From contig NW_027266276.1 in assembly GCF_022045235.1 (NCBI RefSeq), positions 496,001-560,000 of the forward strand: a stretch of DNA of 64,000 nucleotides, in the 5' to 3' direction. Below, piece after piece: positions 11,871-37,740 of the stretch. Within the stretch, counting starts at the first letter, position 1, and every line of letters starts with the position of its first letter. A program made the translations under genes and the position numbers. The notes under the pieces are model-generated. The model made no database searches, was not told the DNA's origin, and was given only the letters and a program-made list of their open reading frames with translations. The DNA comes from Haliotis cracherodii (Eukaryota).

Positions 11871-12833
11871 AGGAAAGTCTAACTCTTCCTCCTCTGTCTC
11901 CTGTCTCTGGCCTTTGCCGGGAAGAAAGCCCTGCTCGGAAACAGTGTGTAAGTCCCAGAAAATATATTTGACTGAATCAGATATGGACTTCTGTGAAACA
12001 AACACATATACCACAATTTCCGATACATGCTTGGGAGAATTACCCCGACGAACGGTTATGTTTGTGAAGAGAAACTGTGCAAATGGATGATGACCCTTCT
12101 GGTGTGACAGTTTGCTTGGATATAAACTTGACTACTGGTGGCTGTTGTTAAATAATATTTACTTCCTCATTCACTCTGTATTGTAGTTCTCAAACACAAC
12201 TTCAGAGTAGCAGCATTTAAATTGAAAGGCCTAATTGTGTTTTGAAGTTTTGAACGGCGGCGAAATCCGCAACCTCGTCAACTCAGTAGTGATCAAGTTT
12301 GGCATGGACGCTGACCACCTGGATTGTGAACAGGAGTGGGAACGGGATTTCACCTCCCTCTTCACCAACGACATTCTCGACCTTTTCTGCGACTTCGTCT
12401 GCAAGGTGTAAGTCAATGATTGTAAAGACAGGGAATAAATGGTTCAACCACAGGTGATATGCTTAGGATTCTGCAGGGCTTGTGATTAAAATGATGGATG
12501 ATTCTCAGCGTCGTTTAAACATTGAATCATTGTGCCATAACGCCCCATAACATCCTAGAGGATTATACTGTATAAAAGACCCGCGATGACACATGTTGAA
12601 ATGGTTGATAAGGCCCTGTAACACATGTGTAACATAATTTCGTGTTGCAATGGTCTTCTTGCACACTTAGTCCATGCTTGTTGCAGTGATCGAGAGCCTC
12701 CTGTTATTATCACGGTGCCCTGAACTAAGTCGTTATGCATATGTACGCTTCACACGCTGTATTTTATTACAGAATCCAGAGCCTGATTCAAAGGTCTCAC
12801 CACGACTCACCGACTACCGCTGTCACCAAATAA
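11871..12833 (+). pseudogene. Array copy 2: pseudogene; exon remnants 11871-11943, 12248-12407, 12773-12833
   Basis: Start codon ATG->AGG (11871), in-frame TAA at codon 4 (11880-11882), upstream acceptor/5'UTR partly deleted, second Cys changed to Trp with a 12-nt insertion, non-coding exon 1 missing. Confidence 0.88.
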
Positions 12834-14004
12834 AGTATTTTCAAATGGTAATCAATATAAACTAGCCATGCAATTTTTTTTGGTTAAAAATGTAATATTG
12901 AAGCACTATCTGCGCATATAAATTATATACCTAGTCCACAAACCTTCTAAAAAATTGCAAAGGACTAATAGTATGGATCCATTCTCCTCATGGTTACAAG
13001 ATGCAAAGTGAGGTTAGGTGAAATGAAATTTGGTTTAACTTGTATTCCAGATTATTACATTTAAGTAATGCCGCATTTTTGTGCTAGCCCATTGCGATAT
13101 CATGCCGCACTGTTAACATGGATATACTCAGACACAGCATACTGACTCTTGTCGACAGTTCTTGTCTTATCCCATCAATGCCGAGTGGCGGCAGGGTAAA
13201 ACGAGTACTATCTCTAACGTCTAAAATGCCTACACCAATCCTCAGCATCCGCGTCTGCCAAAAGTCGATATGAAAATGTAAGAAATCTGCATATGCCCTG
13301 TTAGAATTGTGTACATGTCACCAGTCCAGTTCACAACGGTCGTCGCTGGTCGTCACAGTGTAGTAAAATCCTGTCACCCAACCTTTTGTCGGCCTAGGAT
13401 AGACTGGAGAAAACATGTGTCCCATGATCCCATGATCTTGATGAGGTTGCAATAGGTAAGGAACGTGACGTCACGGAAGGTGAACGCAGGACATGTGGCG
13501 GCTCCCAGTCTATCCCAGCACCGAAGGTTAACATGGGGATTGTGACGTTATCTGTTAAGAGAAGCACTGTCACTCCTTCACATCTCGACACACAGCTTAT
13601 TGCATACAGAAATAATGGTTCACCTACAAAGTCCTTGAGGACCGTCCATCTACCATTCTTCGGGAGGGGCGTAGGGACAAAGAGACAACATATATTTCGT
13701 CACCAAGTTCTTCTAGATATACAATGGTTTTCCGTGAAAGAGTGAGCTGAGCGGAACTTTATCATAACCAAACGTGAATTGAACCAACATATTTTAGACA
13801 TTAGAGCAATATGACATTTCGGAGACGTTAGGGGCATTGTGCCATATTTGGAATATTTTTCATGTCAGCGACTTATGGCATTTGTAATAAATTACCCGTC
13901 ATTATTGTTCCGCGGAAGATGCCAATAGATGTATCTGTATGACAGATAGCGTGAACAGGACTTCCAAGTTAAACCATGTCAGTTTGAATAAGTACCTCCT
14001 TACA

Positions 14005-14658
14005 ATGAAGAGCTGAGAGCCATAAGGGCCAATGTCATGTGGAGTCTGTTTGGAGAAAAGTGATGAAAACCATAACCATATGCATGCTAATGAATTTTTT
14101 TACTGATAAATTCCTAGACATTAACGCATTCTGACAGCAGAGATACAAATGTTGTTATAAGAAGCATTTAAAAAAGGAAATAAACTTACGTTTTTAATTT
14201 GTGTAAGGGTGGAAAGGGCCAATGTCTGTATTTTGGCCCTTTTTGACCATCAGGCATTTGCATGGGATTTAACATGTGAGATTGGTAAACTACTACTGCT
14301 GAAAGTACAAACACATACTATTGAAGTATTTTAAATGATATAAACTATTTCCAATTTGTTGAAATAGTTGAAACATAATAATAAGGTGTCCAAACTTTCA
14401 AAATCTCTCTCAGACAACCAGTCTCAACCACACACGGAAATGAGAGCTAAAACGGCCAAAATCCAGCAAAGGGACTTTGGCTCTTTTGGAACTTGACTTT
14501 GGCCCTCTAGAATTTTAAGTAGCTATAAAAAAACGCACCAATGAAAACATACAATATTCTTTTCACAGATAGACAAGAACTCATAGATGTTATTTGTGCA
14601 ATAAAATGCAAAAAGGGCCAAAATGCATTTTGGCCCCTTTTAGCACTAAGGTCTTCAT
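14005..14658. mobile_element. Non-autonomous DNA-transposon/MITE-like insertion
   Basis: Absent at the paralogous site (~7750); imperfect terminal inverted repeats (TIRs) ATGAAGA..T.AG.GC..AAGGGCCAA; internal AAGGGCCAA/TTGGCCC repeats. Confidence 0.55.
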
Positions 14659-15841
14659 AAATAACTCCCCTTACAAATGAAAACTGAAAAACAAAATAAA
14701 AATCATCAATATTCATAAAATAAATTATTTAGCGTCTGAATTTATTCAGACTAGAATATACTTCTCAAAGAAATTAAAGAACACCCGATTTGTTCCTATT
14801 ACTGTAAGTCTTTGAAAGGCGTCTAGAAGTGATACACATAAGGAAGAGAATTTATGGATGTCAACTTCTTTAGTATGAGGACCACGAACATGGTATTTCT
14901 CATAATAAAGAAGTTTATATCCATAAATACTCTTCCTCATATTACTGTAGTTAATGTGTCTTGGTATGCCGTGAGGAGACTCACTACACTGACGTTGGCT
15001 GTTCGATGGTTCGAAAGACGTCTTTTTTTGTCATTACATTCCATGTGACGTGGCATTCCAGTTTTGGTTTGTGAGTTCAATGTTGGAGGAAAGACCGAAG
15101 TGATGCAGGTCTCAGACGTTTCCCACTGTGGTGAAACCAACAAGCACGGATGTGATGCTAACAAAACTCGGAATCTGTGATTTTGACACACCTGACGAAT
15201 GCAAGTCGGCGAAAGTACATATTGTGCCTCAGACGACTGGGCAAGAGCCTGATGCACAAAATGATATGTGCATAGCTATTACCACATTTATCCGTATAAT
15301 AACACTACACCTTCAGTTATTAGAAAGTCACATGCGGACGGGACGTGTAAGGGGGACTCTGTGTGGGGACTCTGTGTCTGTGTGTGTGTGTTGGGGGGGG
15401 GGGGGGGGGGGGTAGGGTGTGTTGGTGGCGGCGGTGGCCCTAACCAAATATTGGAGAGTCTACTTTTGTACTTTTTTTCCAGACATTTCCAATTTTCTCC
15501 TTGGTTACATCGATAAGTCACCATGACATTCCGCGAGTTTTACAACTCGTCCATTTCAATACATATTTTATGTAACTCTGTTCACCGTGCCATTGGTAGA
15601 TGTCCACAAAGATTTCATGACAGTATGTGTGCTCATACAGACTACATTAGGAAATGTAGTGCAATTTATGTAATGTGTTGCTCATCGGTACTGACATCAG
15701 TTACATAAAAAGCCTACAATCGCAATGCACACGTTCTCTTTCCATGTATTCTGCATTTATTTCAAGATAAGGCGCATTTAGAACTAAACTCTAGGTATGC
15801 GTTGATTGGTTGGAAGGAACGTGTGAGACGTGTTGAAGGGC

Positions 15842-15894
15842 TTTAAATATCAAACATTTGCTGAGTGTCAGTCTTCCTGATTTGAACGGTAAGT
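15842..15894 (+). promoter_or_regulatory. Copy 3 core promoter and non-coding exon 1 (15870-15888)
   Basis: TTTAAATA at 15842, Inr TCAGTC at 15868, donor ACG|GTAAGT. Confidence 0.7.
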
Positions 15895-16656
15895 GCAACA
15901 TATAGGACGCAGTGTAAATGAACAAATCTTATGCTACTTGTGCAGTTATTGCACATGGGACTTTCGCCGCTTGTAACAGTTCCTGCCAGGAAAGGCTTCC
16001 ACCATTATTCCGATCTGGGAATAGAACGCGGACCTTTGCTTGGCGAGCCAACACTTTAACAACTTGGCTACCAATCCGCCCGATTTGTTAGATGTGTGTA
16101 TGACTGGGTGTAACGATTAGAAAAGTTTATTTAACTCAATATCGTCATGTGCTTTAATTTAATCATTGATGTTCGGAGACAGGTTATTTTGGCTGTCAGG
16201 TAATGGATGGGGGACCGTGGATAATATCCTGCAGCCCGCAATGGACGATTTCAGTCATTGAGTGGGTTCTTATTAAGCCAAAGGCCGAGGTATGATTTCT
16301 CACAATGTACCGGTACATTGTGTGAAACCCATTTTCTTGTTTTTAGCTCGCGATATTGCTGTAGTATTGCTGAAAGCAAAAAAAAACCACTCACTCATCC
16401 AAGCTTTCGGAATGTATTTTTTTAATTTTATAAGTTTGATTGTATTGATTCAAGCCATGGAATCACAGATCTGTGACTTATTCTGTGAAATAAGAAATAG
16501 TAAGCCACAAACAAAAATACATTATTCATCATTTGATATTCTAAAATTTCATAATATCAATTTGTTTTTGTAAATTATATATGTCTTCCTACAAAGCTAA
16601 GATGCTTTGAAACAACGTGTCTATGATTTATTATCTCAGGCAGAAACAACTTCAAC

Positions 16657-17586
16657 ATGAAAGTCGCTATCTTCCTCCTCTGTCTCCTGCCTCTGGCCTT
16701 TGCCGAGAAGAAAGCCCTGCTCGGAAACAGTATGTAACACGAAATCCTCAAAAATATATTTGACTGAATCAGATATGGACTTCAGTGAAACAAACACATA
16801 TACCACAATTTCCGATACATGCTTGGGAGAATTACCCCGACGAAAGGTTTTGTTTGTGAAGAGAAACTGTGCATATGGACGATGACCCTTCTGGTGTGAC
16901 AGTTTGCCTGGATATAAACTTGAATATTGTTGGCTGGTGTTAAATAATATTCACTGACCCACTCTGTACTATAGTTCTCAACCACAACTTCAGAGGAGTA
17001 GCAGTATTCAAACTGAAAGGCCAAATTTTGCTTTATAGTTCTGGACGGTGGCGAAATCCGCAACCTCGTCCAATCAGTAGTGACAAAGTTTGGCAGCGAC
17101 GCTACCGAACAAGAGTGTGAACAGGAGTGCACCGCTCTCTTCACCAACGACATTCTCGACCTTGGCTGCGACTTCGCCTGCAAGGGGTAAGTCCGTGATT
17201 ATAAAGACAGGGTTCAACCACAGGTTTTATACTTAAGATTTCGCAGGGTTTGTTGATTAAAATGAAGGATGATTCTCAGCGTCGTTGAAACATTGAATCA
17301 TTGTGCCATAACATCCTATAACTTCCCAGAGAAATATACTGTATAAAAGACATGCGATGACACGTTGCAATGGGCGATAAGGCCCGGATTCATATAACAT
17401 ATAACATATAACATTATTCCCTGTTGACATGATCGATAGCCTCCTGTTACCATCATGGTGCCTTGAACTAAGTCATAAGATGGATGTACCCTTAGTCAGT
17501 ATTCACGCATTCTGTTTTATTTCAGAATCCAGAGCCTTATTCAAAGATTTCACCACGACTCACCGACTACCGCTGCCACCAAATAA
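16657..17586 (+). CDS. Array copy 3: secreted twin-CX3C protein, 93 aa; exons 16657-16729, 17039-17186, 17526-17586
   Basis: MKVAIFLLCLLPLAFAEKKALLGNILDGGEIRNLVQSVVTKFGSDATEQECEQECTALFTNDILDLGCDFACKGIQSLIQRFHHDSPTTAATK*; canonical splice sites; AATAAA downstream. Confidence 0.9.
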
Positions 17587-18458
17587 AGTATTAAATTTTG
17601 TAACTGGTCATGAATAAAATCTAACTTCGCCACAATGCAAGTTTTGTTGTTAGAAATGTAATATTGAAGCATTATCTACGGATATCCAGAAATCCACAGT
17701 CCACACATTTTTTCAAAACTTACCATGGACTATTAGTTCGGGTCGGTGGGTAGCCTAGTGGTTAAGGTGTTAAGGCATTTTCGATTCTCCTCACGGTTAC
17801 AGCATGTGAGGCAATTTTCTGATTTCCCAACTCCCATGTTGCAAGGTGAGGTTAGGTGAAGTGAAATGGGGTTTAAAANNNNNNNNNNNNNNNNNNNNNN
17901 NNNNNNNNNNNNNNNNNNNNNNNNNNNNNNNNNNNNNNNNNNNNNNNNNNNNNNNNNNNNNNNNNNNNNNNNNNNNNNNNNNNNNNNNNNNNNNNNNNNN
18001 NNNNNNNNNNNNNNNNNNNNNNNNNNNNNNNNNNNNNNNNNNNNNNNNNNNNNNNNNNNNNATACCTAGTAGTAATACCGCATTTTTCTGCCAGCCCAGA
18101 GCGATACTATGGCGCACTTTAACATGAATACCTCACTCAGACACAGCATACTGACTGCGAGCCGACAGTTCTTGTAATACACCTCAATGCCGAGCGGCGG
18201 CAGGGTAACAACCAGTACCATCTTTAACGTCTAATATGCCCGCACCAGCTTTCAGCATCCGCGTCTGCCAAAGGTCGGTATGAAAATGTAAGAAATCTGC
18301 ATATGCTCTGTTAGAATTGTGTACATGTCACCAGTCCAGTTCACAACGGTCGTTGCTGGTTGTCACAGTGTAGTAAAATCCTGTCACCCAACCTTTTGTC
18401 GGCCTAGGATAGACTGGAGGAAAGATGTGTCCCAAGATCTTGATGAGGTCTCAATAGT

Positions 18459-18610
18459 TGAGTGAGTGAGTGAGTATGGTTTATGCCGCTTTTAGCAATA
18501 TTCCAGCAATACACAATAAATGAGGTTCACAAATTGTACCCATGTCGGAAATCGAACCCCCGTCTTTGGCGTGACGAGCGAACGCTTTAACCACTAGGCT
18601 ACCCGACCGT
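18459..18610 (-). mobile_element. SINE family A
   Basis: (TGAG)n tail and reversed A/B boxes; absent at the paralogous site ~13455. Confidence 0.8.
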
Positions 18611-18956
18611 AATAAGTAAGGAACGTGACATCATGGACATGGGGCATGTGGCAGCTACCAGTCTATCCCAGCACTGAAGGTTAACATGGGGATTGTGACG
18701 CTTTGTGTATATCACTGTCACTCCTTCACATCTCGGTACACAGCTTATTACATACAGAATTAAAAGTTCACCTACAAAATCCGTTAGGATCGTCCAACTA
18801 CATTCTTGGGGAGGGGGGAGGGAACCGAGGAGACGGGATATATGTTTCAGTCAGCACATCTGGGTATACAATGGTTTTCTCTTAAAGAGAAAGTCAGACA
18901 ATTTTCATCGCAGTAAGTTCATAATCGAAACGTGATGTAGAACCAACACAATTGAG

Positions 18957-19522
18957 GGACATTAGAGACATATGGCATGCTAAAGATATATTGCAGGTTA
19001 GAGATATATGGCATGTTATGGATATATGGTGTGTTAGAGATAAATGGCCTGTTAGGGATATATGGCATGTCAGGGGTATATGGCATGTTAGAGGTATATC
19101 GCATGTTAGAGGTATATGGGATGTTTGAGGTATATAGCATGTTATAGGTATATGGCATGTTAGGGATTTATGGCCTGTTAGGTATATGTGGCATGTTAGA
19201 GATATATGGCCTGTTAGGGATATAAGGCACGTTAGAGGTATATGGCATGTTGGGGGTGTATGGTATGTTGGAGGTGTATGGCACGTTAGGTATATATAGC
19301 ATGTTAGGGATATATGGCATCTTAGAGATAGATGGCCTCTTTGGGATATATGGCATGTTAAAGATATATGGCCTGTTAAGGATATATGGCATGGCAAGGT
19401 TGTATGGTATGTTAGAGGTATATGGCATGTTAGGGATGTATGGCATGTTAGGTATATATGGCTTGTTAGAGGTTTATGGCATGTTAGAGGTATATGGCAT
19501 GTCAGGGATATATGGCATCTTA
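18957..19522. repeat. 18-bp minisatellite, same family as 655-1875
   Basis: GGCATGTTAG(A/G)G(G/A)TATAT period. Confidence 0.92.
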
Positions 19523-19747
19523 GAACTTTTTTTTATATTCGTTGCCATCTCTATCAACCACCAATTAGAATTTGACAGGAGAAATTGCTGTGAAATCTTA
19601 AAAAATGACAGATCACAAACATGAATATTCAAACTCTCGTATCATAAAAATGTCAGCTCATCTGCATCCTTTGTTGTTGAGTATTTTAGCCACGGCACCA
19701 TTGGTTGCAGCGACCATCTAGTGCTGAGAAAAAGTTCAGAGGATAGG

Positions 19748-19800
19748 TTTAAATAGCGTCGCAATGGGTTACGTCATTCTTCTTATCTAAGACGGTAAGT
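19748..19800 (+). promoter_or_regulatory. Copy 4 core promoter and non-coding exon 1 (19776-19794)
   Basis: TTTAAATA at 19748, Inr TCATTC at 19774, donor ACG|GTAAGT. Confidence 0.7.
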
Positions 19801-20569
19801 GGAACGGACAGACGTGTAATCGTGAGATAGGTTTGTGTAACATCATGTTCGTTATGATACATGGGGACAGTTAGATTTCAGTCAAATTCAACTGTTTAAT
19901 TAGTTACCTTTTTATAATTTTCTGCTACATGTGAGGTGAGGTGATATGGGTTTCCCCTTTTCGCGAAAACCTGGTATCATTTCTATTTGATAGTGATTCA
20001 TAAACACATGCTCATGATATAGTCGGAATCGTACAATCGACTCTGCTTTATGCAGAGATTTCTTTTGGATGTGGAAAGGATGTTGTAGCTCTATTCACTG
20101 ATTTTAAGTGATCTTAAGATGATTTAAGCTCTTATTTTGCTTTCTAGCTGCTATCGTTTTATATTTAACGGTGTGTTCAGGATTGACACAGGAGCAAAGT
20201 GCAACCACGTGTCTGAAACTTGAATTTCACTATTTATAGGGTAGGGGAACTGTAGCAACACGTAAAGCACGCTTTCCATGTGGTATCTGGACAAATTTAG
20301 GTTCATGAAACTATGGAAGCCTAATTCAGTCATCTATCATCATATTTCGTATTTCTGATTCCCACACCTGAAATCTAGAGACTATGAATATGGTGGCGCT
20401 TAATTTTTGTGCATGTGTATATTATCATTACCGGTGAAGACGGCGAAGGCTGGCCCAGGCATCCGAGGCGTTGAACATGGTTTAGTCCGTTTGGTATGGT
20501 TGTTGTTTTGCGCCACAGTCAGCAATACTCCAGCAATATGGTTAAATGTGCTTCAATCATATCGCGACG

Positions 20570-20770
20570 GGCACGTGCTGCGTGCGTGCGTGTGTGCGCT
20601 AGTCCTGACTACTGACATGCCACTGAGATACCATGCCGCAGTTTAACATGGATACCCCACTCACAGTATTCTTACTCCGAGCCGACCAGTCCTTGTTTTA
20701 GCCCCTTAGTGCCGAGCGTCATGCAGGGCAGCAAGTACTTTCTTTTTACGTCTTTTTGTGTGACGCGACA
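20570..20770 (-). mobile_element. SINE family C remnant in intron 1 of copy 4 (similar at ~28380-28625, ~37930-38210, ~49290-49570, ~22820-23020)
   Basis: GAGATACCATGCCGCAGTTTAACATGGATACC core. Confidence 0.65.
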
Positions 20771-21477
20771 GGGGAATATGCTTCAGATGGATGCATCTTT
20801 CAGATACAAGTTATGATTGTGCCTTTGCGTAATCGGGTGAGATCATGTATAATGTGTCCTTTAACACATTTAGTGAATGTTTAAGTTTGCTTTATGTTGC
20901 AAGTGGTATGCTATATACTACGAGCTGCATATATTGAACTAACAATAAAATGATTTCTTTGCATTTATGAAAAAGGACAAGATCAGGTTTGTTGACCTGG
21001 ATACATCTGAGGCTGTATACAGGTCTATTCCAAAGATCTTGTGGCGGAAGTCAAAACAGGGAATTAGGAAATCGGACATCGTTTTTGTTACTGATGCTTC
21101 ACATTTAGAAATGTCCTCCACATGTCTTCTATTAAACATTTCGAAAGCTTTACTTGGTATTGAATGGTGCCCATGGGGATGCCTACTTCTTGTCTAAAAT
21201 TCTTACCACTAAAATTTACACAGATATTATCAATGAGGAAGTCCAGCATTCAGACACCAGGTCACTCAAAGTGCTTTTGTAAGACAGATGTGATTCTGAT
21301 CGAATGTGTATGTCTATCATGTGACACAAGGACACACAAAGTAGTGGCGCTTGGGTGCTCGTCTCCCACATAGTACAAGACAGACATTGTAGTGACATAG
21401 AGTATGTGTATCTCCAGATCCAACTTGACACTATTGTGACATGTGTTGTGTGTGTCTCTAAGGTGAAAAACAACAAC

Positions 21478-22579
21478 ATGAAGGTCGCCATCGTCCTCCT
21501 CTATCTCCTGCCTCTGGCCTTTGCCGAGAAGAGGGAACTGCTCGGAAACAGTAAGTGTCACGACACATGTACATGTTCACATAAAACACGAGTTTCTTAT
21601 TGTATTTGAATAAACACACAGTCATCACACAATGCATACACACCAACGCCAGATCTCTCCTCATCCAACCCCACCCTACCCCACCCAACCCCACCCTCAC
21701 ACACGTTCTTTGACTGCCAGAATAACATGAAGACGTCTCAGTTTCATACAAGGAACGCCTTTGTTGGAAATGGACAGCATTCAACTAATCACAAGAATAC
21801 ACGAGCAACGTCAATGTCACACAACTTCAATGTGGTTGTATTCATATTTAAAGGCATAATTTTGTTTTTGTAGTCCTTAACGGCGGCCAAATTCAAAATC
21901 TCATCACTTCTGTGATTAGGAGGTATGGCATACATGCAAACGTTTGGCAGTGCGAGAAGGAGTGTCTGGAACTCTTCACCAACCACATCCTCGACCTCGG
22001 CTGCGACTTCACCTGCAAGGGGTAAGTCAATCGTTTAAAAGACAGGGAATAAATGGTTCAATCACTGGTGTTATTATGCCTCCGAAAGGGTTTGTGATTA
22101 GAATGTAGGGTGATTCTCAGCCTCGTGTATTATGAATCATTGTGCCGCAATGCCCTGTAACATCTGATATTCTTATACAGTTACAAAGACCAGTGATGTC
22201 ACAAGTTGAAAGTCTGAGAGCGCCCTGTGACGTTAATGTAACATCAACTTCTTGTTGCAGTGATCGTTAGCCTCATGCAGCAGACTAGATGCATACTTGT
22301 TGCAGTGATCGATAGCCTTTCATAGCACACTTGTGGCATTCTTGTTGCATTTATCAATAGCTTCTTATAGCACATTGTTGATTTCTTTTTGCGATGATCG
22401 ATAGCCACCTGCTACAACCATGGTGCCCTGGACTAAATCGTTGTTTTCTTTAACAAACTGTTTTTTACAGAATCCAGAGCCTTATTCAGCACCACTTACC
22501 CACGACCCATGCCGTACACCCAAAAATAACTACCCATGGCGCTAACCGCCACCCAACCACTCATGCTGCTGCCAAATAA
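21478..22579 (+). CDS. Array copy 4: divergent His-tailed paralog, 109 aa; exons 21478-21550, 21874-22021, 22471-22579
   Basis: MKVAIVLLYLLPLAFAEKRELLGNILNGGQIQNLITSVIRRYGIHANVWQCEKECLELFTNHILDLGCDFTCKGIQSLIQHHLPTTHAVHPKITTHGANRHPTTHAAAK*; all four mature Cys, the 73/148-nt exon lengths and the splice sites are retained. Confidence 0.88.
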
Positions 22580-23529
22580 AGTATCTGAAACTGTTCATGA
22601 ATAAAATGTAACTTCGCCACCATGCAGTTTCTGTTGTTTAAAATAAAATACTGAAGCACAATCTACGCATAAACGCTTCATACGCTGTCCGTAAAACGTT
22701 TCGAAAATTACAAAGGACAGGAAGATGGGTGGGTACTCACTTGTTAAGTTGTTGAGGCGTTTTCGATTCTCCTCATAGTTACTGCACGTGAAGCGAAATC
22801 CTGATTTCCCCGAAACACCACACGCCTCTCTTTGTGCTCGCCATTGAGCAACTGTGCCTCAATTTAACATGGACACCTCACTCACACGGTATACTGACTC
22901 CGAGCCGACCACCTCTTTAATGCAGAGTTCCAGGCGGGTAACGACTACCAACTTTAACGTCTGTATCTCTGACAAGGCCGGGGATCGAACAGCTGACCTT
23001 CCGCTGTCCACCAGGCGGTCACCACATGCAGGGTACGTCAACCTTGTAGGTAAAGCGTCACACTTCAGATGTAGCTCGATTTTAAGAACGAGATCTACAA
23101 GACCTTATAAGGTAATAACATGACTTCAACATGGAGGCCCAGACTTCCAAGGCTTATCACTTATAGTGTATTGATCAACCGATCATAAGTTCGAATCAGA
23201 GACTCGCCCTGATTATGATAATTGATTTGTCAGCACCACACTCGGGCTTGTTAGTTTCACCAAAGCCGTAAACGTCTTTCTCATCAGTTAGACTTTCCTC
23301 CACGTTTCGTTGACACGCACCAATGTAATGAAATGCTACCTAAAGTGGCCCCTTAACACAGTATTTGGAAAACATGACTATTTGTGAGTATCCAATCCTA
23401 CTTGATGCAAATCGGGTCGCAAAAGGCCTAGAAACGCCCTGATGTCGCTCATATAGGCAAAGGCAGACATCTAGAAACTGCTACCACTGACAAATACTAT
23501 GTGTTCATGTATGACAGTCGCTGCTTTCA

Positions 23530-24425
23530 TACTACACACTCCTCCGTCAAGAGAAGAAAGTTTTAATCCAGTGAAAACTTTATGTAAAATGGACACGTTC
23601 AAGGAGAAAGTTTACTTATTACTGTATTACTCCAAAAGAACACAAAATACATTCTACCAGCAAGATCATGAAAACTGCATGAACATATGTGTTCGGAGTA
23701 AATGAACTGACTCTAGACAGAACATCCGCAATCACGATGTCTTTTTGCATGGTATATTTGATTTGAAGATTAAATCTTGCAAAGACAAACGCCAATTCAC
23801 CAATCTCTGATTTTGGTTCTTCATCTTATCACGAAAAGTCAGTGGATTGTGATGAGAGAAAACTTCAAAGGGATAAACTGTATAGTTTCCAAATACACGA
23901 AAGCATGACTTGTATTTTTTTCTCTGTGGCAAAGTAATCTTTCTGCTGCTTGTCAAATTTCTTTGAAAAATAACAAATAGTATGATGGATATAACTTCCA
24001 TTTCCTTGTAATAAAAGACCATCAGCACCGATGTCACTTGCTACAATTACCAGCCGAAATATTTTCCTGAAGTGCAGGTGTTTTCAAGACTGAAGAATGC
24101 ATGATAATGGAATTTACTATTCCCAAAACTGCCTGGTTTTGACCGATAAGTTAGATACTACATCAGAAAAATGCCCCAGTTTCTATAGTTACCAACCGTA
24201 CTCGGAAACTTTATTAGTTCTTTTTTGTTTGGCAAAACTTTGAATTTGTAATAGCTTCTACTTTTGCATTGATATGGTGTACCTGAATCAAACAGGTGTT
24301 CAGTACAGGGTCAGTGCCCGGAAAAAGGGCCTTGATCTCAGCATGCACAAACAGCTTGAAACCTTCCACCAAAGCCAAATGCGTTACAAGCCTTTAAAAG
24401 TGCAACATAGGTGGGACTAATCTCA
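23530..24425 (-). mobile_element. Decayed Gypsy-type LTR retrotransposon pol fragment (RT/RNase H)
   Basis: Minus-strand FSHHNPLTFRDKMKNQNQRLVNWRLSLQD resembles the Gypsy RNase H C-terminal TDHNPL..KNQRL.RW.L.LQ motif; many stops; purine-rich tract near 23535. Confidence 0.65.
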
Positions 24426-24519
24426 TATTTCTGGTCTCATCAAAGTGATCTTGATCATGTTGATATGAATTGAGGACTGTAATATATCACTAGTAATGTG
24501 GTGTATCTCACCAAAATCA

Positions 24520-25480
24520 CTAGTACTGTGATATATCTGACCTACATCAAAAGTATTGTGATATATCTGACCTGCATCAAAAGTAGTGTGATATGTCTGA
24601 CCTACACCAAATGTAGTGTGGTGTATCGCACCTTCAAAGTATTGTAATATTGTTGACCTATATAAAAAAGGTTGTAATGTATCTGACAAACATTAAAAGT
24701 ATTGTGATATATCTGACCTACTTCAAAAGAAGTATGATATATCTGATAAACATCAAAAGTATTATGGTGTATATGACCTACATCAAAAGTATTGTGATAT
24801 ATCTGACCTACATAAAAAGTATTGTGATATATCTGACCTACATCAAAAGTATCATGGTGTATCTGACCTACATCAAAAGTATTATGATATATCAGACCTA
24901 CATAAAAAAGTATTGTGATATATCTGACGTACATCAAAAGTACTCTGATATATCTGACCTACATCAAAAGAAGTATGATATATCTGACCTACATCAAAAG
25001 TGGTGTGATATATCTGACCTACATAAAAGGTATTGTGATATATCTGACCCTCATTAAAAGTAGTGTGATATGTCTGACCTACATCAAAAGAAGTATGATA
25101 TATCTGACCTACATCAAAAGTGGTGTGATATATCTGACCTACATAAAAGGTATTGTGATATATCTGACCTTCATTTAAAGTAGTGTGATATGTCTGACCT
25201 ACATCAAAAGTATTGTGATATATCTGACCTACATCAAAAGTGTTATTTTATAGCTGACCTACATCAAAAGTATTGAAAATATGTGACCTGCATCAAAAGT
25301 TCTGTGATATATCTGTCCTACGTCATTAGTTCTGTGATATATCTGAACTACATCACTGGTACTGTAATACATCTGTCTGAAATCAATTGTACTGTAATAT
25401 ATCTGACCGGCATTGCTGGTAGTGTAATATATCTGACCAACTCTGCTATTACTGTAGTATATCCAACCAACTTCATTAGT
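24520..25480. repeat. 30-bp minisatellite (ATTGTGATATATCTGACCTACATCAAAAGT)n
   Basis: 30-bp period that decays at both ends. Confidence 0.93.
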
Positions 25481-25555
25481 ACTGTAATAAATCCACATCA
25501 CCACATCACTAGTATTATGCTGTGTCTGGCACACAAGTTTGTTCATGCATCGTAA

Positions 25556-25884
25556 CGATCCACGCTTTAAGTAAGACCACGCTCAAGCCCGTCCACACAT
25601 TGTAACAACACGATCCACGCTGTAAGTAAGACCATGCTCAAGCCCGTCCACACATTGTAACAACACGATCCACGCTGTAAGTAAAACCATGCTCAAGCCC
25701 GTCCACACATTGTAACAACACGATCCACGCTGTAAGTAAAACCACGCTCAAGCCCGTCCACACATTGAAACAACACGATCCACGCTGTAAGTAAAACCAC
25801 GCTCAAGCCCGTCCACACATTGTAACAACACGATCCACGCTGTAAGTAAAACCACGCTCAAGCCCGTTCACACATTGAAAAACA
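25556..25884. repeat. 55-bp tandem repeat, 6 copies
   Basis: CGATCCACGCTGTAAGTAA...CACATTGTAACAACA starting at 25556, 25611, 25666, 25721, 25776 and 25831. Confidence 0.95.
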
Positions 25885-26510
25885 ATAGACGATGTTGAGA
25901 TTTCAGGTTTGTGATGTCAGATTGTATGAGCGGCGTGTGCTACCAGTAGGACAGGGCAAGCTTTTCCTGGTGTCATCTCTGATTTTCAGTGATCCATTCA
26001 TAATAACTTCAAACTATGTTTCCATTGTAAGGCGTTATAATGAGGCAATTTCAGTCTCGTTATACGACGACTATCTTTGTACATGTGTTTACGTTGAATA
26101 CTTTGGTGGGTGAGATTGAGAAAAAATTGTGTTGCTTTACACTTTCGAGAATGTAACCAAGGTCCTAACAAGATGGAGATTTGACTGATTGTTTTGGGGA
26201 ACATGTGCTTTTTAGATCAAGGACTTAAAAATGAAATTGACGCTGTAAACAAATTATTAATTTATCTCCAAACGTTTTTTAAAGAAATGGGGATTTGAAA
26301 TCACAATCTCTAGGTTTCAAAGCTCATGTGACATATCAGGACGAAACACTTTATCCACTAAGCCAAAGTGAGGAGGTTCAAATGAAGATGACTTTAAGTA
26401 GACCAAATATTTAACTAAGAAAAACTTTCTTCTAAAAATAAATGAAACTTAAACCATTACCTAAATATAGAAAATGAACTTTAAACAAAACTCTTGAAAC
26501 AGATGAAAAA

Positions 26511-28036
26511 CACTCTCTCAAAAAAGAAACGCAACCCCAGTCTGAAAATGTTAGAAAGCCCCAAAAAGAAAAATGTTGATTGTAAATACAGTTTTTCTGA
26601 TATGCAAGTATACCATGTACACTGTTTATTAACGTAAGCGCCCAAACACATTAACTGTCGTGCACAAGGGCATTTTATTGTTACTTTTATCATAGTGAAC
26701 AAAATTTTCATGTGGCCCATGCCAAAAGCCTCATGCACGTGCAATTCATGGAAAGAGCAGTAGAAGTATGGGTTTATAAAAGCACGTGTTGATTAGCAAT
26801 TCACTCTATCATTTTCACCGAAAGACAAGGTCGAATATGCCACGGTTGAGTGCTGCAGATCGAAATATCGCAATTTGTCGTATTGAGGCCGAACAAAGTT
26901 TTGGAAACGTTGCCTGGCACCTCAATATTCATAAAACAACGATTCCCTACTTTGGAGCGAATACACCCAGTTTCATGCAACTGAAGATCGCCCCAGAAGT
27001 GGTAGGCCAAGTGTTACCACACCACCTCAGGATCGATTCATCCAGGTCACCCACCTACGTAATCGGCTAGCCACACCTAGGGTCACTGCAACATAGGTGC
27101 CAGTTTTGAGAAGAGTGTCCGCACAAACAATTAGGAACCGTCTACGAGAGGCCGGTCTACGTGCAAGAAGACCACTTATTGGACCTGTTTTACGCCACGA
27201 ACATCGACGCCAACGACTCAGGTGGTGCACCAATGTTCGGATATGGACCCTCAGAAACTGGAGGCGCGTCTGGTTTAGTGACGAATCACGTTTTCGCTTA
27301 CAACGCCGTGACGGAAGACAGCGTGTCTATCAAAGAGGAAACTAACGTTTTGCCCCGAAATGTGTTCGGCAGGTCGACAGATTTGGTGGAGGGAGCGTCA
27401 TGGTGTGGGGAGCCATGTATTACAACCAAATATCAGACTTGGTGATCATTTGTGGCAATTTGACAGCCCAGCGCTATATCAATGACGTTTTACAGCCTCA
27501 TCGTCTGCCGATTATCGACCAACAGAGGGAGCTCTATCAACACGACAACGCCCAGCCGCACACTGTTCATGCAACAGTGAATTTTCTCCAGAATTCTAAC
27601 GTCAACGTGTTACCATGGCCCTCCCGATCACCAGACATCAACCCAATCGAACATCTTTGTGATTATCTGGATCGACGAGTACGTGCACGTACACCGCCGC
27701 CCGAGACGTTGGATGCACTAGCCGTTGCACTGAAGTAGGAGTGGAGAGCAATCCCTCAGGAAAGAATCCGGCGTCTTGTCCGTTCTGTTCCAAGGAGGTG
27801 CAATGCTGTGATCGCAGCTCGTGGCGCTCATACGAGGTACTGAGAAAGACGCCCCCTTGCGTCAAGTCAATCTTAGTGAGAGAACTGTCGAATCTTGGAC
27901 TTAAACTTGCATAACTGTACTCCCACCATGCCAAATTTCATGTTGTTGTCTTCAATAATAAATGTGTTATAATAACTTGAATATTGAGATAAACATCTTG
28001 AAAATATAGGGGTTGCGTTTCTTTTTTGAGAGAGTG
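26511..28036 (+). mobile_element. Tc1/mariner (DD34E-type) transposon, full length with disrupted transposase (26837-27843)
   Basis: Perfect 28-bp TIRs CACTCTCTCAAAAAAGAAACGCAACCCC (26511-26538 and 28009-28036), 3' TA; motifs MPRLS, WFSDES, QHDNA, WPSRSPDINPIEH, GAHTRY; a frameshift and several stops. Confidence 0.93.
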
Positions 28037-28214
28037 TATTTAACTTGATTCTAACTATTTTGTATGCTTCATAATTTCGATAGGTGACACGTGTGTTTTC
28101 GTGTTCGTTTCCCACAAGATCGACCTATTCACCCGATAACGCATGGGAGTTATGATATTAGCGTTCATTGGTTTGAGTGGTCACGTGGTACAAAGAGAGA
28201 AATCAGAAAATATG

Positions 28215-28267
28215 TATATATAAGACATCAGTATGTAAAGTCATTCTTCTTGTCTAAGACGGTAAGT
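28215..28267 (+). promoter_or_regulatory. Copy 5 core promoter and non-coding exon 1 (28243-28261)
   Basis: TATATATAA at 28215, Inr TCATTC at 28241, donor ACG|GTAAGT. Confidence 0.72.
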
Positions 28268-29224
28268 GGAACTGATAGAAAGACGTGTGAGTGATCGAGG
28301 TTTGCGAAACGTCATGTTGGTTATGACAATTGTTTTAGTTTGTAATATATACGTATTGTATGACATGCTTAAGAGGTTTGGTGGAATGTGGTCCAACGCC
28401 GCGTTCAAGAATAATTCACTCATATAGCGACGTGCATGCACGTGTGTACGTGTCAATGCGTGTGCTACTCCGGTTTTACTGTGATAGCCTATTGAGACAC
28501 CATGCCTCAGTTTAACATTGATAGCCCTTTCAGAGTCATTGTACTGGTCCAAGCCGACGATGGTCCTTGTTTTGTCCAGTAACTGCCGAGCGCCAGTCAT
28601 GGAAAAAACAAGTACGACCCTTTAACGTAGTTTGAATGATGCTGTCAAGGAATTATGCCGTTGCATATGTGTTTATGTTAATATGCATGTAAATTAACAT
28701 ATGGCAAACCTGTTCAACTTTTGTTGTATGTTGCAAGTGGTATGTTTTTTTGCGAATTAATTTCATGATCACCGGGGCAGCATGTGGCATGCTACATAGT
28801 GAAGAGGTTGTTTGATTGAATCACGGGGAGTTGCTTAGCATTCATGTTTGAATTAATTATAACCCTGTATTTTCATGGGGACGTTTTGGAATCCTAGATG
28901 TGTTATATCCACCGCAAATGTTTCGCTTTTAGTTATTGTGATACTGAGTCATGGATATTAACCCGAACAACATGAGAACATTGAGGACATGTCAAAATTG
29001 GAAAATACCTCGTTTTTGTCACTGATGCGTCACGTTTGGAATAAAATCCACGTGTCTATCAAATATCTGAAAACCACCAAGACACGCTTGACTGTGGTCA
29101 CAATCACATTTATGATATTGTTTCTAACTGACATTTCTTTATCAATAATGCTGAGTCAACCCGAGAAAAAACATTTTTGCCGAGACTTTAAACCTTTTAT
29201 TAACGTGGCACTTTGCACGTTGCA

Positions 29225-29945
29225 CATATTGCAGTGACGCGTGTGTGTTTGTCTTCCCGGCTAAAACAAGGGCACACATTGTAGTGACACGTGAGTGTAT
29301 GTCTCTCGGCTAGAACCAGGAACCCATTGCAGTGACACGTGCGTTTTTGTCTCTCGGCTAGAAAAAGGAATCCATTGCAGTGACACGTGTGTGTTTGTAT
29401 CTCGACAAGAACAAGGAACCCACTGTAGTGACACGTGCGTGTTTGTGTCTCGGATAGAACCAGGAACCCATTGCAGTGACACGTGTGTGTTTGTGTCTCG
29501 GCTAGAACCAGGAACCCATTGCAGTGACACGTGCCTGTTTGTCTCTCGGCTAGAACCAGGAACCTATTGCAGTGACACGTGTGTGTATGTGTCTCGGCTA
29601 GAACCAGGAACCCATTGCATTGACACGTGTGTGTTTGTATCTCAGCAAGAACAAGGTACCCATTGCAATGACACGTGCGTGTTTGTCTCTCGGCTAGAAC
29701 CAGGAGCCCATTGCAGTGACACGTGTGTGTTTGTATCTCAGCAAGAACAAGGAACCCATTGCAATGACACGTGCGTGTTTGTATCTCAGCAAGAACAAGG
29801 AACCCATTGCAATGACACGTGCGTGTTTGTATCTCAGCAAGAACAAGGAACCCATTGCAGTGACGTGCGTGTTTGTCTCTCGGCTAGAACAAGGAACCCA
29901 TTGCAGTGACATGTGTGTTTGTATCTCAGCTACACATATTGTAGT
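29225..29945. repeat. 48-bp minisatellite in intron 1 of copy 5
   Basis: CATTGCAGTGACACGTGTGTGTTTGTCTCTCGGCTAGAACCAGGAACC, ~14 units. Confidence 0.93.
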
Positions 29946-30110
29946 GATCTCCTTGATCGCATTTGAAACATTGTTGTGACAAATAGTTTGTTTGTCTCTA
30001 AGCTTGTACAAGACACATTGTAGTGTCACCGTGTGGTTGACTCCCAGATCGTAGATGGCTATTGTAGTGACGTATGTTGTGCTTGTCTTCCAGGTAGAAA
30101 CAACATCACA

Positions 30111-30995
30111 ATGAAGGTCGCCATCTTCCTCCTCTGTCTCCTGCCTCTGGCCTTTGCCGAGAAGAAAGCCCTACTTGGAGGCAGTGAGTGTCACGACACA
30201 GATACTACTGGGCATATACACTTGTTTGTATATACATATTGTATCAGAATATACACATACAATCATCGCATAATGCATACGCACCACCACCAGACCCCAT
30301 CCCACCCTGACACACGTTCTTTGACTGCCAAAATAACCGTCATGATGACAGAGCAAGGTCAATGTCACACAACTTCACTGTAGTGGTATTCAAACATACA
30401 TACATACATTCATACATACATACAAGTCATTCAACTGTTCACAGGAAAACACGAGCAATTGTCAATGTATTCAAAGTTAATAGCTCACAATTGTGTTTTA
30501 AGTTTTGGACGGCGCCGAAATCCATAATCTCGTCAATTCCGTGGTTGAGAAGTTTGGCAGTGATGCTACCGAGAAAGAGTGTGAAACGGAGTGCACCGCA
30601 CTCTTCACCAACGACATCCTCGACCTCGGCTGCGACTTCGCCTGCAAGGAGTAAGTTTTTCTTGCCAAATACTTTTTAAATAAAATTAAGAAAGGGGTCA
30701 GTTGAAATGCAGCTTCGTGTAACCTTGAACACATTGTTGCAAGACCCGTCACGTCGAATGTTGCATTGGTTGTTGCAATGTTTGATAGCCTTCAGTTACT
30801 ATAATGGCGCCCTGAACTAAGTACCACCTGTATGGTCTAGTCTAGTGGGCAGAGGGTCTGCCCGGAGAGTAGAAAGTCGCTTGTTCGATCCCCGTTAAAA
30901 TATACTTGTTATTTCCCTGTATGGCCCATGACATTAATAGTGACTGTTCTTTTTTCAGAATCCAGAGCCTTATTCAGAAGTTTCACAAGAACTGA
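30111..30995 (+). CDS. Array copy 5: secreted twin-CX3C protein, 85 aa; exons 30111-30183, 30503-30650, 30959-30995
   Basis: MKVAIFLLCLLPLAFAEKKALLGGILDGAEIHNLVNSVVEKFGSDATEKECETECTALFTNDILDLGCDFACKEIQSLIQKFHKN*; GT-AG introns. Confidence 0.88.
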
Positions 30996-31067
30996 CCGAC
31001 GTCCGCTATGATAAACTGTCTGTCACCGGTCATTAATAAAATGTAGCTTCGCCACCATGAACTTTGT

Positions 31068-31760
31068 TGTTGATAATAATGTAAGATTGAAACGCTACTT
31101 ATGCTAGGCCTTACATCGTTTAAAACATTGACTATACGAATAGGGCAGGGGTTAACGCATTCGCTCCTCACGACGAAGACCCGGGTTCGATTCCCGACAT
31201 GGGTACAATGTGTGAAGCCCATTTCTGGTGTCCCCCACCGTGATATTGCTGGAATATTGCTTAAAGCGGCGTTAAACCATACTCACTCACTCACTCACAC
31301 ACTCACTGTTGATAATATTGTAACATTGAAACACTAATTATGCCAAGTCTTACATCGTTTAAAACAGTGACTATACGAATAGGGCAGTAGTGTAGCCTAG
31401 AGGTTAACGCATTCGCTTGTCACGCCGAAGACCCGGATTCGATTCCCGACATTGGTGCAATGTTTGAAGCCCATTTCTGGTGTCCCCCGCCGTGATATTG
31501 CTATAATATTGCAGAAAGCGGCGTTAAACCCTACTCACTCACTTACTCACTCACTGTTGATAATAATATAACATTGAAACACTATTTATGCCAAGTCTTA
31601 CATCGACTATACGAATAGTGCGGCTGGGTAGCCTAGTGGTTAACGCGTTCGCTTGTCACGCCGAAGACCCGGGTTCGATTCCTTTTAGGGTACTGTATGT
31701 GACGCAAATTTCTGGTTTCTCAAGATAAAATTGGAATATTGCTAAAGGCGGCGAGCGAAA
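31068..31760 (+). repeat. ~240-bp tandem triplication of copy-5 3' flank plus SINE A
   Basis: Three units of GTTGATAAT...TTGAAAC..TACATCG..ACTATACGAATAG, each followed by a SINE A copy. Confidence 0.8.
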
Positions 31761-31795
31761 CAAAAATTCAGTCCCTTAGATCTACAAGATGCAAG

Positions 31796-32031
31796 GTTGT
31801 TTTGTTTGTTATTTTTTTGTTGTGGTTAACGCCGGACTCAATAGCAATATTCCAGCTAAATAATCGAGTCTACATCAGACAACACAGTGATTGACATCAT
31901 GAGCATCGGTCCACGTAAATGGGATGCGATGACATGCATCAGTCACGTAAACTAGCCTGACCACCCGATGTGGTCGCCTCTTACGACAAGCATGGGTGCT
32001 GAAGACCTATTCTAACCCAGATCTTCACGGG
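31796..32031 (-). mobile_element. SINE family B
   Basis: GTCGCCTCTTACGACAAGCATGGG core. Confidence 0.75.
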
Positions 32032-32034
32032 TGA

Positions 32035-33455
32035 CCTTAAGCTAAGATACAAGATGCCTTAACCTAAAATGCAAGGTGCCTTAATCTAAGATGCAAGGTG
32101 CCTTAACCTAAGATACAAGGTGTCTTAATCTAAGATGCAAGGTGTCTTAATCTAAGATGCAAGGTGCCTTAACCTAAGATACAAGGTGTCTTAATCTAAG
32201 ATGCAAGGTGTCTTAATCTAAGATACAAGGTGCCTTAATCTAAGATGCAAGGTGCCGTAACCTAAGATGCAAGGTGCCTTAATCTAAGATGCAAGGTGTC
32301 TTAATCTAAGATGCAAGGTGCCTTAACCTAAGATTCAAGGTGCCTTAACCTAAGAATGAATGAATGAATAAATTTCTTTATTTCCTCCCGAGTTGAATCC
32401 GAAGATGTTACATGGGCATATACATTATTTACAATACATCAATGAAATTACTTGACTATATAAAATGAAATCATGTTATACACTGCTATTAATAAATAAT
32501 TTACAATGTACATTTTGAGAGCAATAAGGTATCTAGTAGATATACATAAGGTGTTTCTTTAAATTCCATATGAAGTGGCAGAAAGCCATTATGATGCTTT
32601 GCCAAGTATCATAATCAAGTTCGTTAGTCAAGTCATGGACATCTGCACCGAGAAAGAACGAAAGCCTATCATCATCGTCAAGCATATCTATTTCCCGTAT
32701 ACATCCACGTCAAGTTTATCAGTCAGGCATGAGAAGAAATTATTTCTGTCAGGCATAAACATTTCACAGTGCAAAATAATATGGCAATCATAGTCATAGC
32801 AATGTCTATTACAATGGTTACATTCTTTCGACACTTTTGCTCTTGATCCGATTTTAATAGAAAGTTGCAGGGGTTGTCTTAAATGTGGATAGAGATACAT
32901 TACATTATAAAAACATCCATTTGTAAACGTTTATGAATTTTATGGTATCGTGAAAGATCTGGTCTCTGTGCTAGTCTCTCTCTCCAGATGTACTGTTTAT
33001 TCTCTGATAGACGTCTGATTACAAGAGCTCGCCAAGCCGATTTAGTTGGGAATGAACCACTATCAGTATATTCCTTTATATAGTTATCTAAATGGTATTT
33101 TTAGCAGTATATAGAAGGATGTTGCATATGCTTACTGGACGGCTAATATTAACAATAGCGTTGTTAGCAATGTGAGCACAAAATAGGTCTTTTGTTATTA
33201 AGTTACAATCGTTATTGCAAAGCCTTCCTAATAATTTTAGTCTACATTTATCAATGTATCCATTCACTGACCATATTCCCAAGTTAGAAATAGACGAATC
33301 TAAGATGCAAGGTATGTAAACCTAAGATGCAAGGTATGTAAACCTAAGATGCAAGGAGTCTTAATCTAGGATGCAAGGTGTCTTAATCTAGGATGCAAGG
33401 TGTCTTAACCCAAGATGCAAGGTGCCTTAACCTAAGATGCAAGGTACCTTAACTT
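32035..33455. repeat. 22-bp satellite (AACCTAAGATGCAAGGTGCCTT)n interrupted by a LINE fragment
   Basis: 22-bp period at 32035-32353 and 33298-33455. Confidence 0.9.
32354..33298 (-). mobile_element. 3' fragment of a non-LTR retrotransposon (LINE)
   Basis: (ATTC)n 3' tail; disrupted ORF2 C-terminus LGIWSVNGYIDKCRLKLLGRLC...FPTKSAWR...CNHC..HIILHC (CCHC knuckle-like). Confidence 0.7.
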
Positions 33456-33529
33456 GAGGTAAAGCTTCACGCCGGAATTCACGTGACGTTTCAGCGACAC
33501 AGACAGGTACAATGTTACAAAGACAGACA

Positions 33530-33985
33530 CGGTGTTACACAGACTCAGATTTGGTGCAAAGTTACATTGACGCAGATTTGGTGCAATGTTACGCAGACTC
33601 AGATTAGGTGCAATGTTACACAGACTCAGATTAGGTGCAATGTTACGCAGACTCAGATTAGGTGCAATGTTACACAGACTCATATCTGGTGCATTGTTAC
33701 ACAGACTCAGATTAGGTGCAATGTTATGCAGACTCAGATTTGCTGCAATGTTACACTGACTCAGATTAGGTGCAATGTTATGCAGACTCAGATTAGGTGC
33801 AATGTAACACAGACTCAGATTAGGTGCATTGTTACACAGACCCAGATTTGGTGCACTGTAACACAGGCTCAGATTTGCTGCAGTGTTAAACAGGCTCAGA
33901 TTTGCTGCAATCTTACACAGACTCAGATTTGCTGCAATCTTACACAGACTCAGATTTGCTGCAATCTTACACGGGTGCAATGTTG
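33530..33985. repeat. 27-bp minisatellite (TGCAATGTTACACAGACTCAGATTTGC)n
   Basis: 27-bp period. Confidence 0.93.
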
Positions 33986-36718: not shown

Positions 36719-37740
36719 AGATCAGCGTGCTGAAACCCTACGTCACGCCAAGTTCATTCAGCAGAATATTTTCAACTCTCTCACGGGAGAAACCTGTTGT
36801 ATCGGCTATGTGACGTATGGTGTGTCATCGATCATTGAAAATCAAATCATGTATTTTATAAACATTTTCCATTCTGATGAAGTCAGTATATGGCTGAATT
36901 ATTGCCGATGTGACTTTAAATTTTAACTCACTCATCATTCTGATGATGGTTGAAGGTCTTCCTCATCTTAGATCATTTCCGGGGCTTTCTCTTACCCTCT
37001 TAAACTCCGCTGCCCACTTCCTCACAGTCGCACAGGAAGGAGCATCGTTCATTCAAGCAGATTTGGTCCTTTCACGGGAAATACTTGGTGACAGAGCAGT
37101 AGATAATTTTGCCCCGTTTCATCAAAAGAATATCCAGTCATTTTGAAGTCTGCAGAAATATGCTGCCCGGTTGTGTATTTGGTTCAAATGCAGCCCGTAA
37201 CCCTGGAGAGTGTTGTACTTCATATAGGCAACGTGTTAAGAGTGTCTTATCCATCCTTCGAAGTTGGTTATTGTCCAAAGTTGGTAAAAAAAGGTAAAAC
37301 TTACACAGAGCAAATAAAACTTTAAACATCCTCGAAGCCTCATTTTCAATTCCATCACTATTTAATAGTGATTCATGAATATATGTTATTTGTATATTCA
37401 GAATCATTTAAGGCAATTTCTTATGGTCCCATGTAACAACGACGTAGTTTAGTGTTGGAATCGCACTTTGGACTCTTTACGTTTAGCGAAATTTCTCATG
37501 ATTATGTAAAGGGATTGTTGCTTTATATTTAAAAGTCTACTTCAGAGATATTTAACCGAGTTCTATTTAACCGAGTTCATAATATTTCGTATGTTTTATA
37601 ATCTAGTAGCGTGACACATGTTTTTTCTTGTTCGTTTCCCACAATATCGGCCTTTTCACCCGATAACGCATGGAAATTTTTATCTTGACGTCCATTGGTT
37701 GCAGTGATCACGTTATGCAAAAAACACCTCAGAGAATATA

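Follow-up and report, generated by a model that had tools for sequence, protein, structure and literature searches.

The fourth gene of a tandem array in Haliotis cracherodii, hereafter copy 4, appears to encode a real, old and selectively maintained subtype within an uncharacterised family of secreted peptides, and it is probably functional. Its conserved novelty is a patch of residues in the core of the protein (N27, Q30, R41, H45, N47, W49, H62 and T71), not the triple TTH repeat of the tail. Judged by sequence comparison, a functional divergence of this copy from its acidic paralogs is highly likely, and a mechanism built on histidine, pH or metal, argued from composition, is put forward tentatively. 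A sequence-only reading of the same DNA had described copy 4 as neofunctionalised. Divergence held by selection is supported, because a spliced contig was recovered and the divergent state persists in both H. rufescens and H. rubra; the dN/dS of its branch, however, lies below 1 and is not significantly raised.

The window, that is, the whole stretch of 64,000 nucleotides that was analysed, contains eight tandem gene copies of three coding exons each, spanning 5608..58161 on the + strand (Table 1). Seven of the eight are intact and encode proteins of 85-109 aa. Copies 1, 3, 4, 6, 7 and 8 are exact matches of annotated H. cracherodii proteins, and copies lying beyond the window are known through annotated proteins only. 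In copy 2 the start codon is gone, the second Cys has been replaced and four codons have been inserted, with the exon-2 frame still open. Copies 6 (39152-40501) and 7 (50822-52245) represent a recent duplicate, with no silent and three amino-acid-changing differences over codons 20-80 and an N gap in intron 1 of each. Copies 5 and 8 end at an early TGA stop (30993-30995 and 58159-58161, respectively) where copies 1 and 3 have TCA, and the remainder of the former tail is legible in their UTRs. Minisatellite arrays lie at 650-1900, 18960-19530, 24500-25000 and 56700-58050, and an 18-base minisatellite upstream of copy 4 matches one at the start of the window.

Table 1. Coordinates of the tandem array and of the features of copy 4, in positions of the window.
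Feature	Position	Strand	Basis or remark
Intact copies, ATG positions	5608, 16657, 21478, 30111, 39152, 50822, 55773	+	window sequence
Copy 2, broken	about 11860-12820	+	window sequence
Copy 4, predicted core promoter and short non-coding first exon	19699..19794	+	alignment with copies 5-8
Copy 4, coding exons	21478-21550, 21874-22021, 22471-22579	+	gene model, GT-AG introns
Copy 4, first coding exon	21463..21550	+	15 nt UTR, ATG 21478
Copy 4, second coding exon	21874..22021	+	amphipathic helix 28-41, loop, C-x3-C-x12-C-x3-C helical hairpin
Copy 4, divergence patch, codons 25-56	21874..21968	+	most type-specific residues and synonymous divergence peak
Copy 4, H62 codon	21984..21986	+	D in 18/18 acidic Haliotis paralogs; H in H. 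rufescens and H. rubra
Copy 4, third coding exon	22471..22579	+	end of last helix and tail; stop 22577-22579
Copy 4, three 27-nt (9-residue) His/Thr units	22490..22570	+	predicted disordered
Copy 4, two AATAAA polyadenylation signals	22600, 22642 (22600..22647)	+	sequence

Copy 4 corresponds to XP_071108665.1 (RefSeq, H. cracherodii), a protein of 109 aa with three coding exons and four Cys; by inspection, its signal peptide covers about residues 1-16, and KR stands at 18-19. The sequence-only reading had regarded the Cys residues, the splice sites, the promoter and a canonical KR site as intact. For the four Cys and the splice sites this holds, the introns being of the GT-AG type and in agreement with the joints of a public contig described below. 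The KR site is likewise present, but as a retained ancestral trait, because KR is usual in H. asinina, H. rubra and distant molluscs; it is the other six intact copies, all acidic, that carry KK after the signal peptide instead. This KK may alter processing in those copies, and paralogs P0057 and P0058 have no dibasic site. As for the promoter, the core elements are in place (CCAAT box at 19699, the TATA variant TTTAAATA at 19748-19755, an initiator-like element at 19774 and a donor at 19795), but the far-upstream block common to copies 5-8 has been replaced in copy 4. A decayed TATA box was considered and dropped, since the same variant, TTTAAATA, also lies upstream of copies 1 and 3.

Three public runs, all from one study, were consulted, and their contig depth can neither rank the copies nor give a level of expression. 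In run X1, over 19600-22900, a 345-nt contig joins 21550 to 21874 and 22020 to 22470, in both cases across GT..AG; X1 is RNA by guess only, and both joints coincide with predicted introns. The contig differs from exon 2 of copy 4 at a single base (G21919A, that is, R40K) and is identical to copy 4 along 150 nt that comprise exon 3 and UTR. A lack of expression, which had been named as counting against a new function, is therefore not what was found. Exon 2 of copy 4 is without cover in runs X2 and X3, and no copy-4-specific contig joining the predicted non-coding first exon was seen among the run contigs. A joint from 19748 to 21469 was evaluated as a 5' exon of copy 4 and rejected, its loose end being an exact match to the region upstream of copy 8. 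X1 also contains contigs of the paralogs of copy 4. At copy 8, a contig of this run (window 54641-54768) extends at least 255 bases upstream of the CCAAT box and joins a coding exon, perhaps from an upstream start.

Annotation of this locus is a problem that the analysis has exposed, as RefSeq merges copy 4 with copy 5, listing the two as isoforms of one gene, and does not recognise the copy-4 subtype. In XP_071108662.1/3.1 (RefSeq, H. cracherodii), the first coding exon of copy 4 (21478-21550) is joined to copy 5 (30094-30995), and the H. rufescens model combines copy-4-type exons with a copy-5-type tail containing one His. Such joined models reflect either merged annotation or real splicing between neighbours that swaps tails.

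The evidence for an old subtype comes from its orthologs. H. rufescens XP_048238949.1 (LOC124151186) shares 47 of the 48 exon-2 residues of copy 4; the sole difference is the same R40K as in X1, and two further changes separate the signal peptides of these proteins. H. rubra, which passages of PMC12627906 place in the main abalone lineage opposite to that of H. cracherodii, has XP_046572019.1 (LOC124280167), with 33 of 48 exon-2 residues as in copy 4, and the change therefore reaches over the oldest division within the abalones; across the same lineage split, acidic proteins are identical at 36-40 of 48 and are thus more alike than the copy-4-type orthologs. For a comparable abalone split, >84.9 Ma figures in passages of 10.64898/2026.01.03.697505, where it serves to calibrate and is not itself estimated. 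In the tree, a branch supported at 100/99 sets copy 4 and the H. rufescens and H. rubra proteins apart from the rest, and grouping the H. rubra protein with southern-lineage paralogs is rejected (p-AU 0.017). Conservation of orthologs in related species had been proposed as a check, with neutral-rate divergence and frequent loss as the outcome that would speak against a new function. That outcome is largely contradicted, since the copy 4 type has been kept in H. rufescens and H. rubra, but no such protein is present among nine H. asinina proteins, an absence that may be due to loss or to missing annotation.

Of the 60 sites in residues 21-80, 37 have the same residue in at least 16 of the 18 acidic Haliotis proteins, and at nine of these 37 both copy 4 and the H. 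rubra protein have departed from it. Seven changes are identical in the two (D27N, E30Q, K41R, D45H, T47N, D62H and A71T), while S44 has become I or T and E48 has become V or I. W49 is also common to both proteins. The only further conserved sites to have changed, in one ortholog each and always conservatively, are V35I, F42Y and F70I. In copy 4, the codons of N47-V48-W49-Q50 (21938-21952) carry a 9-base word from which the other seven copies encode their K-F-G-S loop, here 19 bases downstream and in another frame; a single short templated event may have produced several of the diagnostic residues.

The family to which the array belongs is widespread in molluscs. A profile of the seven exon-2 translations gave 34 matches among 1.84 billion representatives, one of which (P0035) was spurious; fused or much longer copy-4-type forms are covered by this representative search only. 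Many members are precursors of 2-9 modules separated by KR, with Thr/Pro-rich linkers (P0004-P0037). The sources looked up were Haliotis, Patella, Littorina, Crassostrea, Mytilus and Solemya, and all entries are 'uncharacterised' or unnamed. Pfam contains no family for exon 2 or the tail of copy 4. A weak recurrent match to the Pfam family BSMAP exceeded the cut-off only through summed repeats in 2 of 14 relatives and was rejected as a likeness in Cys spacing. A search of the ESM Atlas with copy 4 gave no usable match and later an eclosion hormone at 0.78, below lead level, and sequence searches of the PDB gave no match and then a single chance match. Family accessions and identifiers were not mentioned in the literature searched, outside which most subscription papers lie, and a search by motif returned only unrelated papers among the matches listed.

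Copy 4 shows the family signature, namely a signal peptide, a dibasic site and C-x3-C-x(8-20)-C-x3-C, and lacks the acidic loop G-[ST]-D-x-[TNS]-E before the first Cys, as D45 and E48 have been replaced. Distant relatives were represented by 75 distinct domains from 29 of 32 proteins (the other three had no domain, and P0011 and P0035 were left out beforehand). Among these domains, D45 occurs in 68 and E48 in 67, whereas H45 occurs in one and W49 in none. Because D45 and E48 are near-universal there, the acidic state is ancestral and copy 4 has altered the most conserved non-Cys motif of the family; the replacement of both residues therefore makes it a derived subtype. Of the 75 domains, 67 have T, N or S at position 47, and since these three residues cap helices, T47N keeps the fold.

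Selection was assessed with a two-ratio codon model on the seven intact copies of the window, copy 2 being left out of all codon analyses. The copy-4 branch has an omega of 0.46 against 0.19 elsewhere (p 0.07-0.08 on two trees), with 0.67-0.78 over codons 25-50 and 0.12-0.21 over the Cys core, which on this branch is still under purifying selection. As regards the dN/dS check suggested by the earlier reading, the ratio is raised, but it is never above 1 and not significant, with only seven sequences and low power, on a branch that mixes an early burst with later conservation. Burst followed by conservation appears to be the pattern of copy 4, the contrast between stem and later branches giving p 0.018 or 0.066 according to the rule for counting variable sites.

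When the 11 diagnostic columns are removed, the copy-4-type orthologs group in 0% of 200 bootstraps, and hence the orthology of copy 4 and the H. rubra protein rests on those columns. Copy 4 then falls among the northern paralogs (86/86, moderate), with the H. rubra protein outside them. Silent differences between copies 4 and 5 affect 8 of 14 codons within the divergence patch and 2 of 38 outside it, in a window chosen after looking. A scan-corrected permutation yielded p <0.05 in three of five copy-4 pairs (0.0025, 0.0025 and 0.017; 0.07 and 0.09 for the rest) and in one of ten acidic pairs, copy 7 having been left out of the silent-site comparisons as a near copy of copy 6. The introns are not homogenised, with 74-81% identity in copy 4 pairs (intron 2), so that conversion would have to be old or restricted to exons, unless constraint at the nucleotide level in the signal and C-terminal regions produces the same picture. 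The grouping by lineage outside the patch is consistent with a patch that selection has shielded from gene conversion.

In composition, the residue counts reported earlier for the region after residue 19 are exact: 6 D/E, 7 K/R and 9 His in copy 4, against 11 D/E and 5 K/R in copy 1, which has 4 His there. The altered loop, the change of TND to TNH and the three TTH units are also all present, and three TTH within 35 residues were met in only 4 of 200,000 composition shuffles. The tail, described as lengthened by three units, has however acquired only two extra ones, with a net gain of 16 aa over copy 1, because the last unit is a modified ancestral end. Residues 83-109 have a pLDDT <50. Copy 4 has seven tail His and the H. 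rubra protein six, against 0-2 in 16 acidic proteins; the H. rubra tail places its six His in 28 residues with one TTH and without the triple repeat. What the two tails share is His richness, not the TTH repeat, and the tail sequence itself is not conserved. Among 79 tails from other family members, the highest number seen is 4 His, in the linkers of five.

The cationic activity anticipated from these counts would be confined to acid conditions, as the computed charge of copy 4 is +8.2 at pH 5.5 and near neutral (-0.2) at pH 8.1, the pH of seawater. Computed values for the H. rubra protein are likewise near 0 at pH 8.1 and about +8 at pH 5.5, whereas the 16 acidic proteins range from -4 to -9 at pH 8.1. 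An N-terminal xxH copper motif is absent from copy 4. The shift is concentrated in residues 25-50, with a charge of +1 to +2 in the copy 4 type versus -1 to -4 in acidic proteins; residues 51-80, the hairpin half, are still acidic (-2 to -3). Helix 28-42 has a hydrophobic moment of 0.53-0.65 in the copy 4 type versus 0.30-0.58 in nine acidic proteins.

AlphaFold models are weak (pLDDT 57 and 54) and agree on helices at 28-41, 48-58 and 62-82. In three fold searches with these low-confidence models, no match rose over background (Z 4.1 and 5.3 at best; Foldseek E never <0.001). A complex model of copies 3 and 4, for which alignments were not used, scored 0.01. Since the modelled helix order puts H45 and H62 at opposite ends of the hairpin, a single site formed jointly by both within one chain is unlikely.

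A course of events that can be proposed with good confidence is a duplication early in abalone history, after which a burst of change would have replaced the acidic surface and selection would have held the resulting patch. The burst would have cost D/E at 27, 30, 45, 48 and 62 and brought basic residues at 40-41, His at 45 and 62 and an exposed Trp at 49. The fold would have been kept throughout by the four Cys, the hydrophobic positions and the helix-capping residue at 47, and the flanking coding sequence would have stayed neighbour-like through gene conversion or strong sequence constraint. What follows at the protein level is rather doubtful as a whole: loss of the signal peptide followed by processing at KR would release a 90-residue peptide that is neutral in seawater, and acid pH or the binding of Zn/Cu by its 8-9 His would render it strongly cationic. 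In that form it could attach to anionic surfaces, such as microbial membranes or polyanions, by means of its amphipathic basic helix, Trp loop and flexible His tail, the acidic copies presumably binding a different, probably cationic, partner. With predicted biochemistry and a chance a little short of even, copy 4 may thus bind anionic surfaces through a His switch that acid pH or Zn/Cu turns on, and it would serve most likely in defence or mucus.

Several other readings of these data have to be weighed. A rather unlikely one is a change of partner, the family being protein binders or signalling ligands that are freed from their precursors at KR sites; the H45-N47-W49 loop and H62 would fit another receptor, and charge shift and tail would be secondary. 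Prohormones are built as KR-separated multi-copy precursors, as are many relatives of copy 4, and this reading agrees both with the clustering of changes in one exposed loop, including a new conserved Trp, and with a tail whose sequence is not conserved. However, five independent losses of acidic residues over helix, loop and turn exceed the needs of one binding loop, as do the His-rich tails in both lineages. The opposite charge of residues 25-50 in the two types could instead point to a minor subunit whose charge complements that of the acidic copies, so that it pairs with them and alters their activity or assembly, consistent with their position in the same array and the occurrence of copy 4 and paralog contigs in the same run. 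The still acidic hairpin half of copy 4 and the lack of such a partner in H. asinina, a lineage with nine acidic proteins, make this improbable.

There is also little chance that copy 4 is redundant and drifting under relaxed selection. Its omega is raised yet below 1, its signal peptide has changed twice relative to H. rufescens, it has no counterpart among nine H. asinina proteins, its upstream promoter block has been replaced, and tandem expansion of a tail is a common neutral event. These signs are opposed by seven replacements that are the same in both lineages and affect sites conserved elsewhere, by a core omega of 0.12-0.21 and by an intact frame, Cys set and splicing, while the neighbouring copy 2 exemplifies decay. 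Finally, the northern and southern proteins could have arisen twice from local acidic copies and not be orthologs, as each groups with its own lineage once the diagnostic columns are set aside; but such convergence needs eight identical parallel replacements (seven conserved sites plus W49), gene conversion gives the same tree more simply, and a double origin is very improbable.

The value of copy 4 lies in the access that it offers to the family, which occurs in gastropods as well as bivalves. No curated domain accounts for this family, the records looked up give it no name, and some sequences classed as conotoxins may belong to it. In copy 4, nature provides a long-tested variant with the most conserved acidic motif inverted, and its comparison with copy 1 or 3 is therefore a direct route to the role of the motif and of the family. 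Should it be a defence peptide switched by pH or metal, it would be relevant for abalone immunity and aquaculture. In its most extended form, which is speculative and on the whole unlikely, the proposal is that the family acts in defence or on surfaces; that its His-switched abalone member, inert in seawater, acquires activity on membranes or metals when in acid compartments or with zinc; that its patch has been protected for tens of millions of years in an array levelled by conversion; and that splicing between neighbours toggles the His tail.

Among known systems, the family may be linked to the cone-snail precursors Cerm06 / Divergent MKVAVVLLVS. These have a similar signal peptide ending in EKR, a likeness seen by eye in the signal fragment given in PMC11066669. 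Passages of PMC11359391 describe body-wide expression of Cerm06 at >15,000 TPM, with unidentified homologs in Littorina and Elysia, and doubt its role in venom; abalone, unlike the cone snail, are not venomous. HGAP, a growth-associated peptide of haliotids, was also considered and rejected, having nine conserved Cys and other accessions in the portion of PMC11108583 that describes it.

Saposin-like proteins resemble the family as small secreted helical modules in multi-copy precursors, but contain six Cys and three disulfides, whereas the mature region of copy 4 contains four Cys. With a low-confidence model, the saposin-like Ac-SLP-1 reached Z 4.1 (rmsd 2.5 over 55 residues) at rank 40 of 50, tied with unrelated helical bundles. 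Plant alpha-hairpinins and vicilin-buried peptides have the same C-x3-C ... C-x3-C spacing and helical hairpin, a likeness of motif only; for alpha-hairpinins, tied top rows at Z 3.5-4.1 are background for a weak model, copy 4 has an extra N-terminal helix, and a sequence link is lacking. The likeness between copy 4 and alpha-hairpinins is most likely convergent.

Clavanins, clavaspirin, histatins and piscidins are His-rich antimicrobial peptides whose activity depends on pH or zinc. Clavaspirin is described as His-rich in passages of PMC11767717. Peptides of this kind share with copy 4 a His-rich composition, an amphipathic helix and a cationic state at acid pH, computed in the case of copy 4. 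Such peptides are short and linear, and some carry an N-terminal xxH copper motif, which copy 4 does not; copy 4, with 90 residues, disulfides and an acidic hairpin, has no homology to them.

That selection can keep a tandem paralog distinct is well known, and copy 4 does not represent a new kind of system. In the red/green opsins, as presented in sections of PMC3924837, a selected patch likewise persists under gene conversion and is marked by a local peak of divergence. The introns of copy 4, unlike those of the opsin model case in that source, are not homogenised; as in the opsins described there, orthologs of copy 4 group inside the patch and paralogs outside it.
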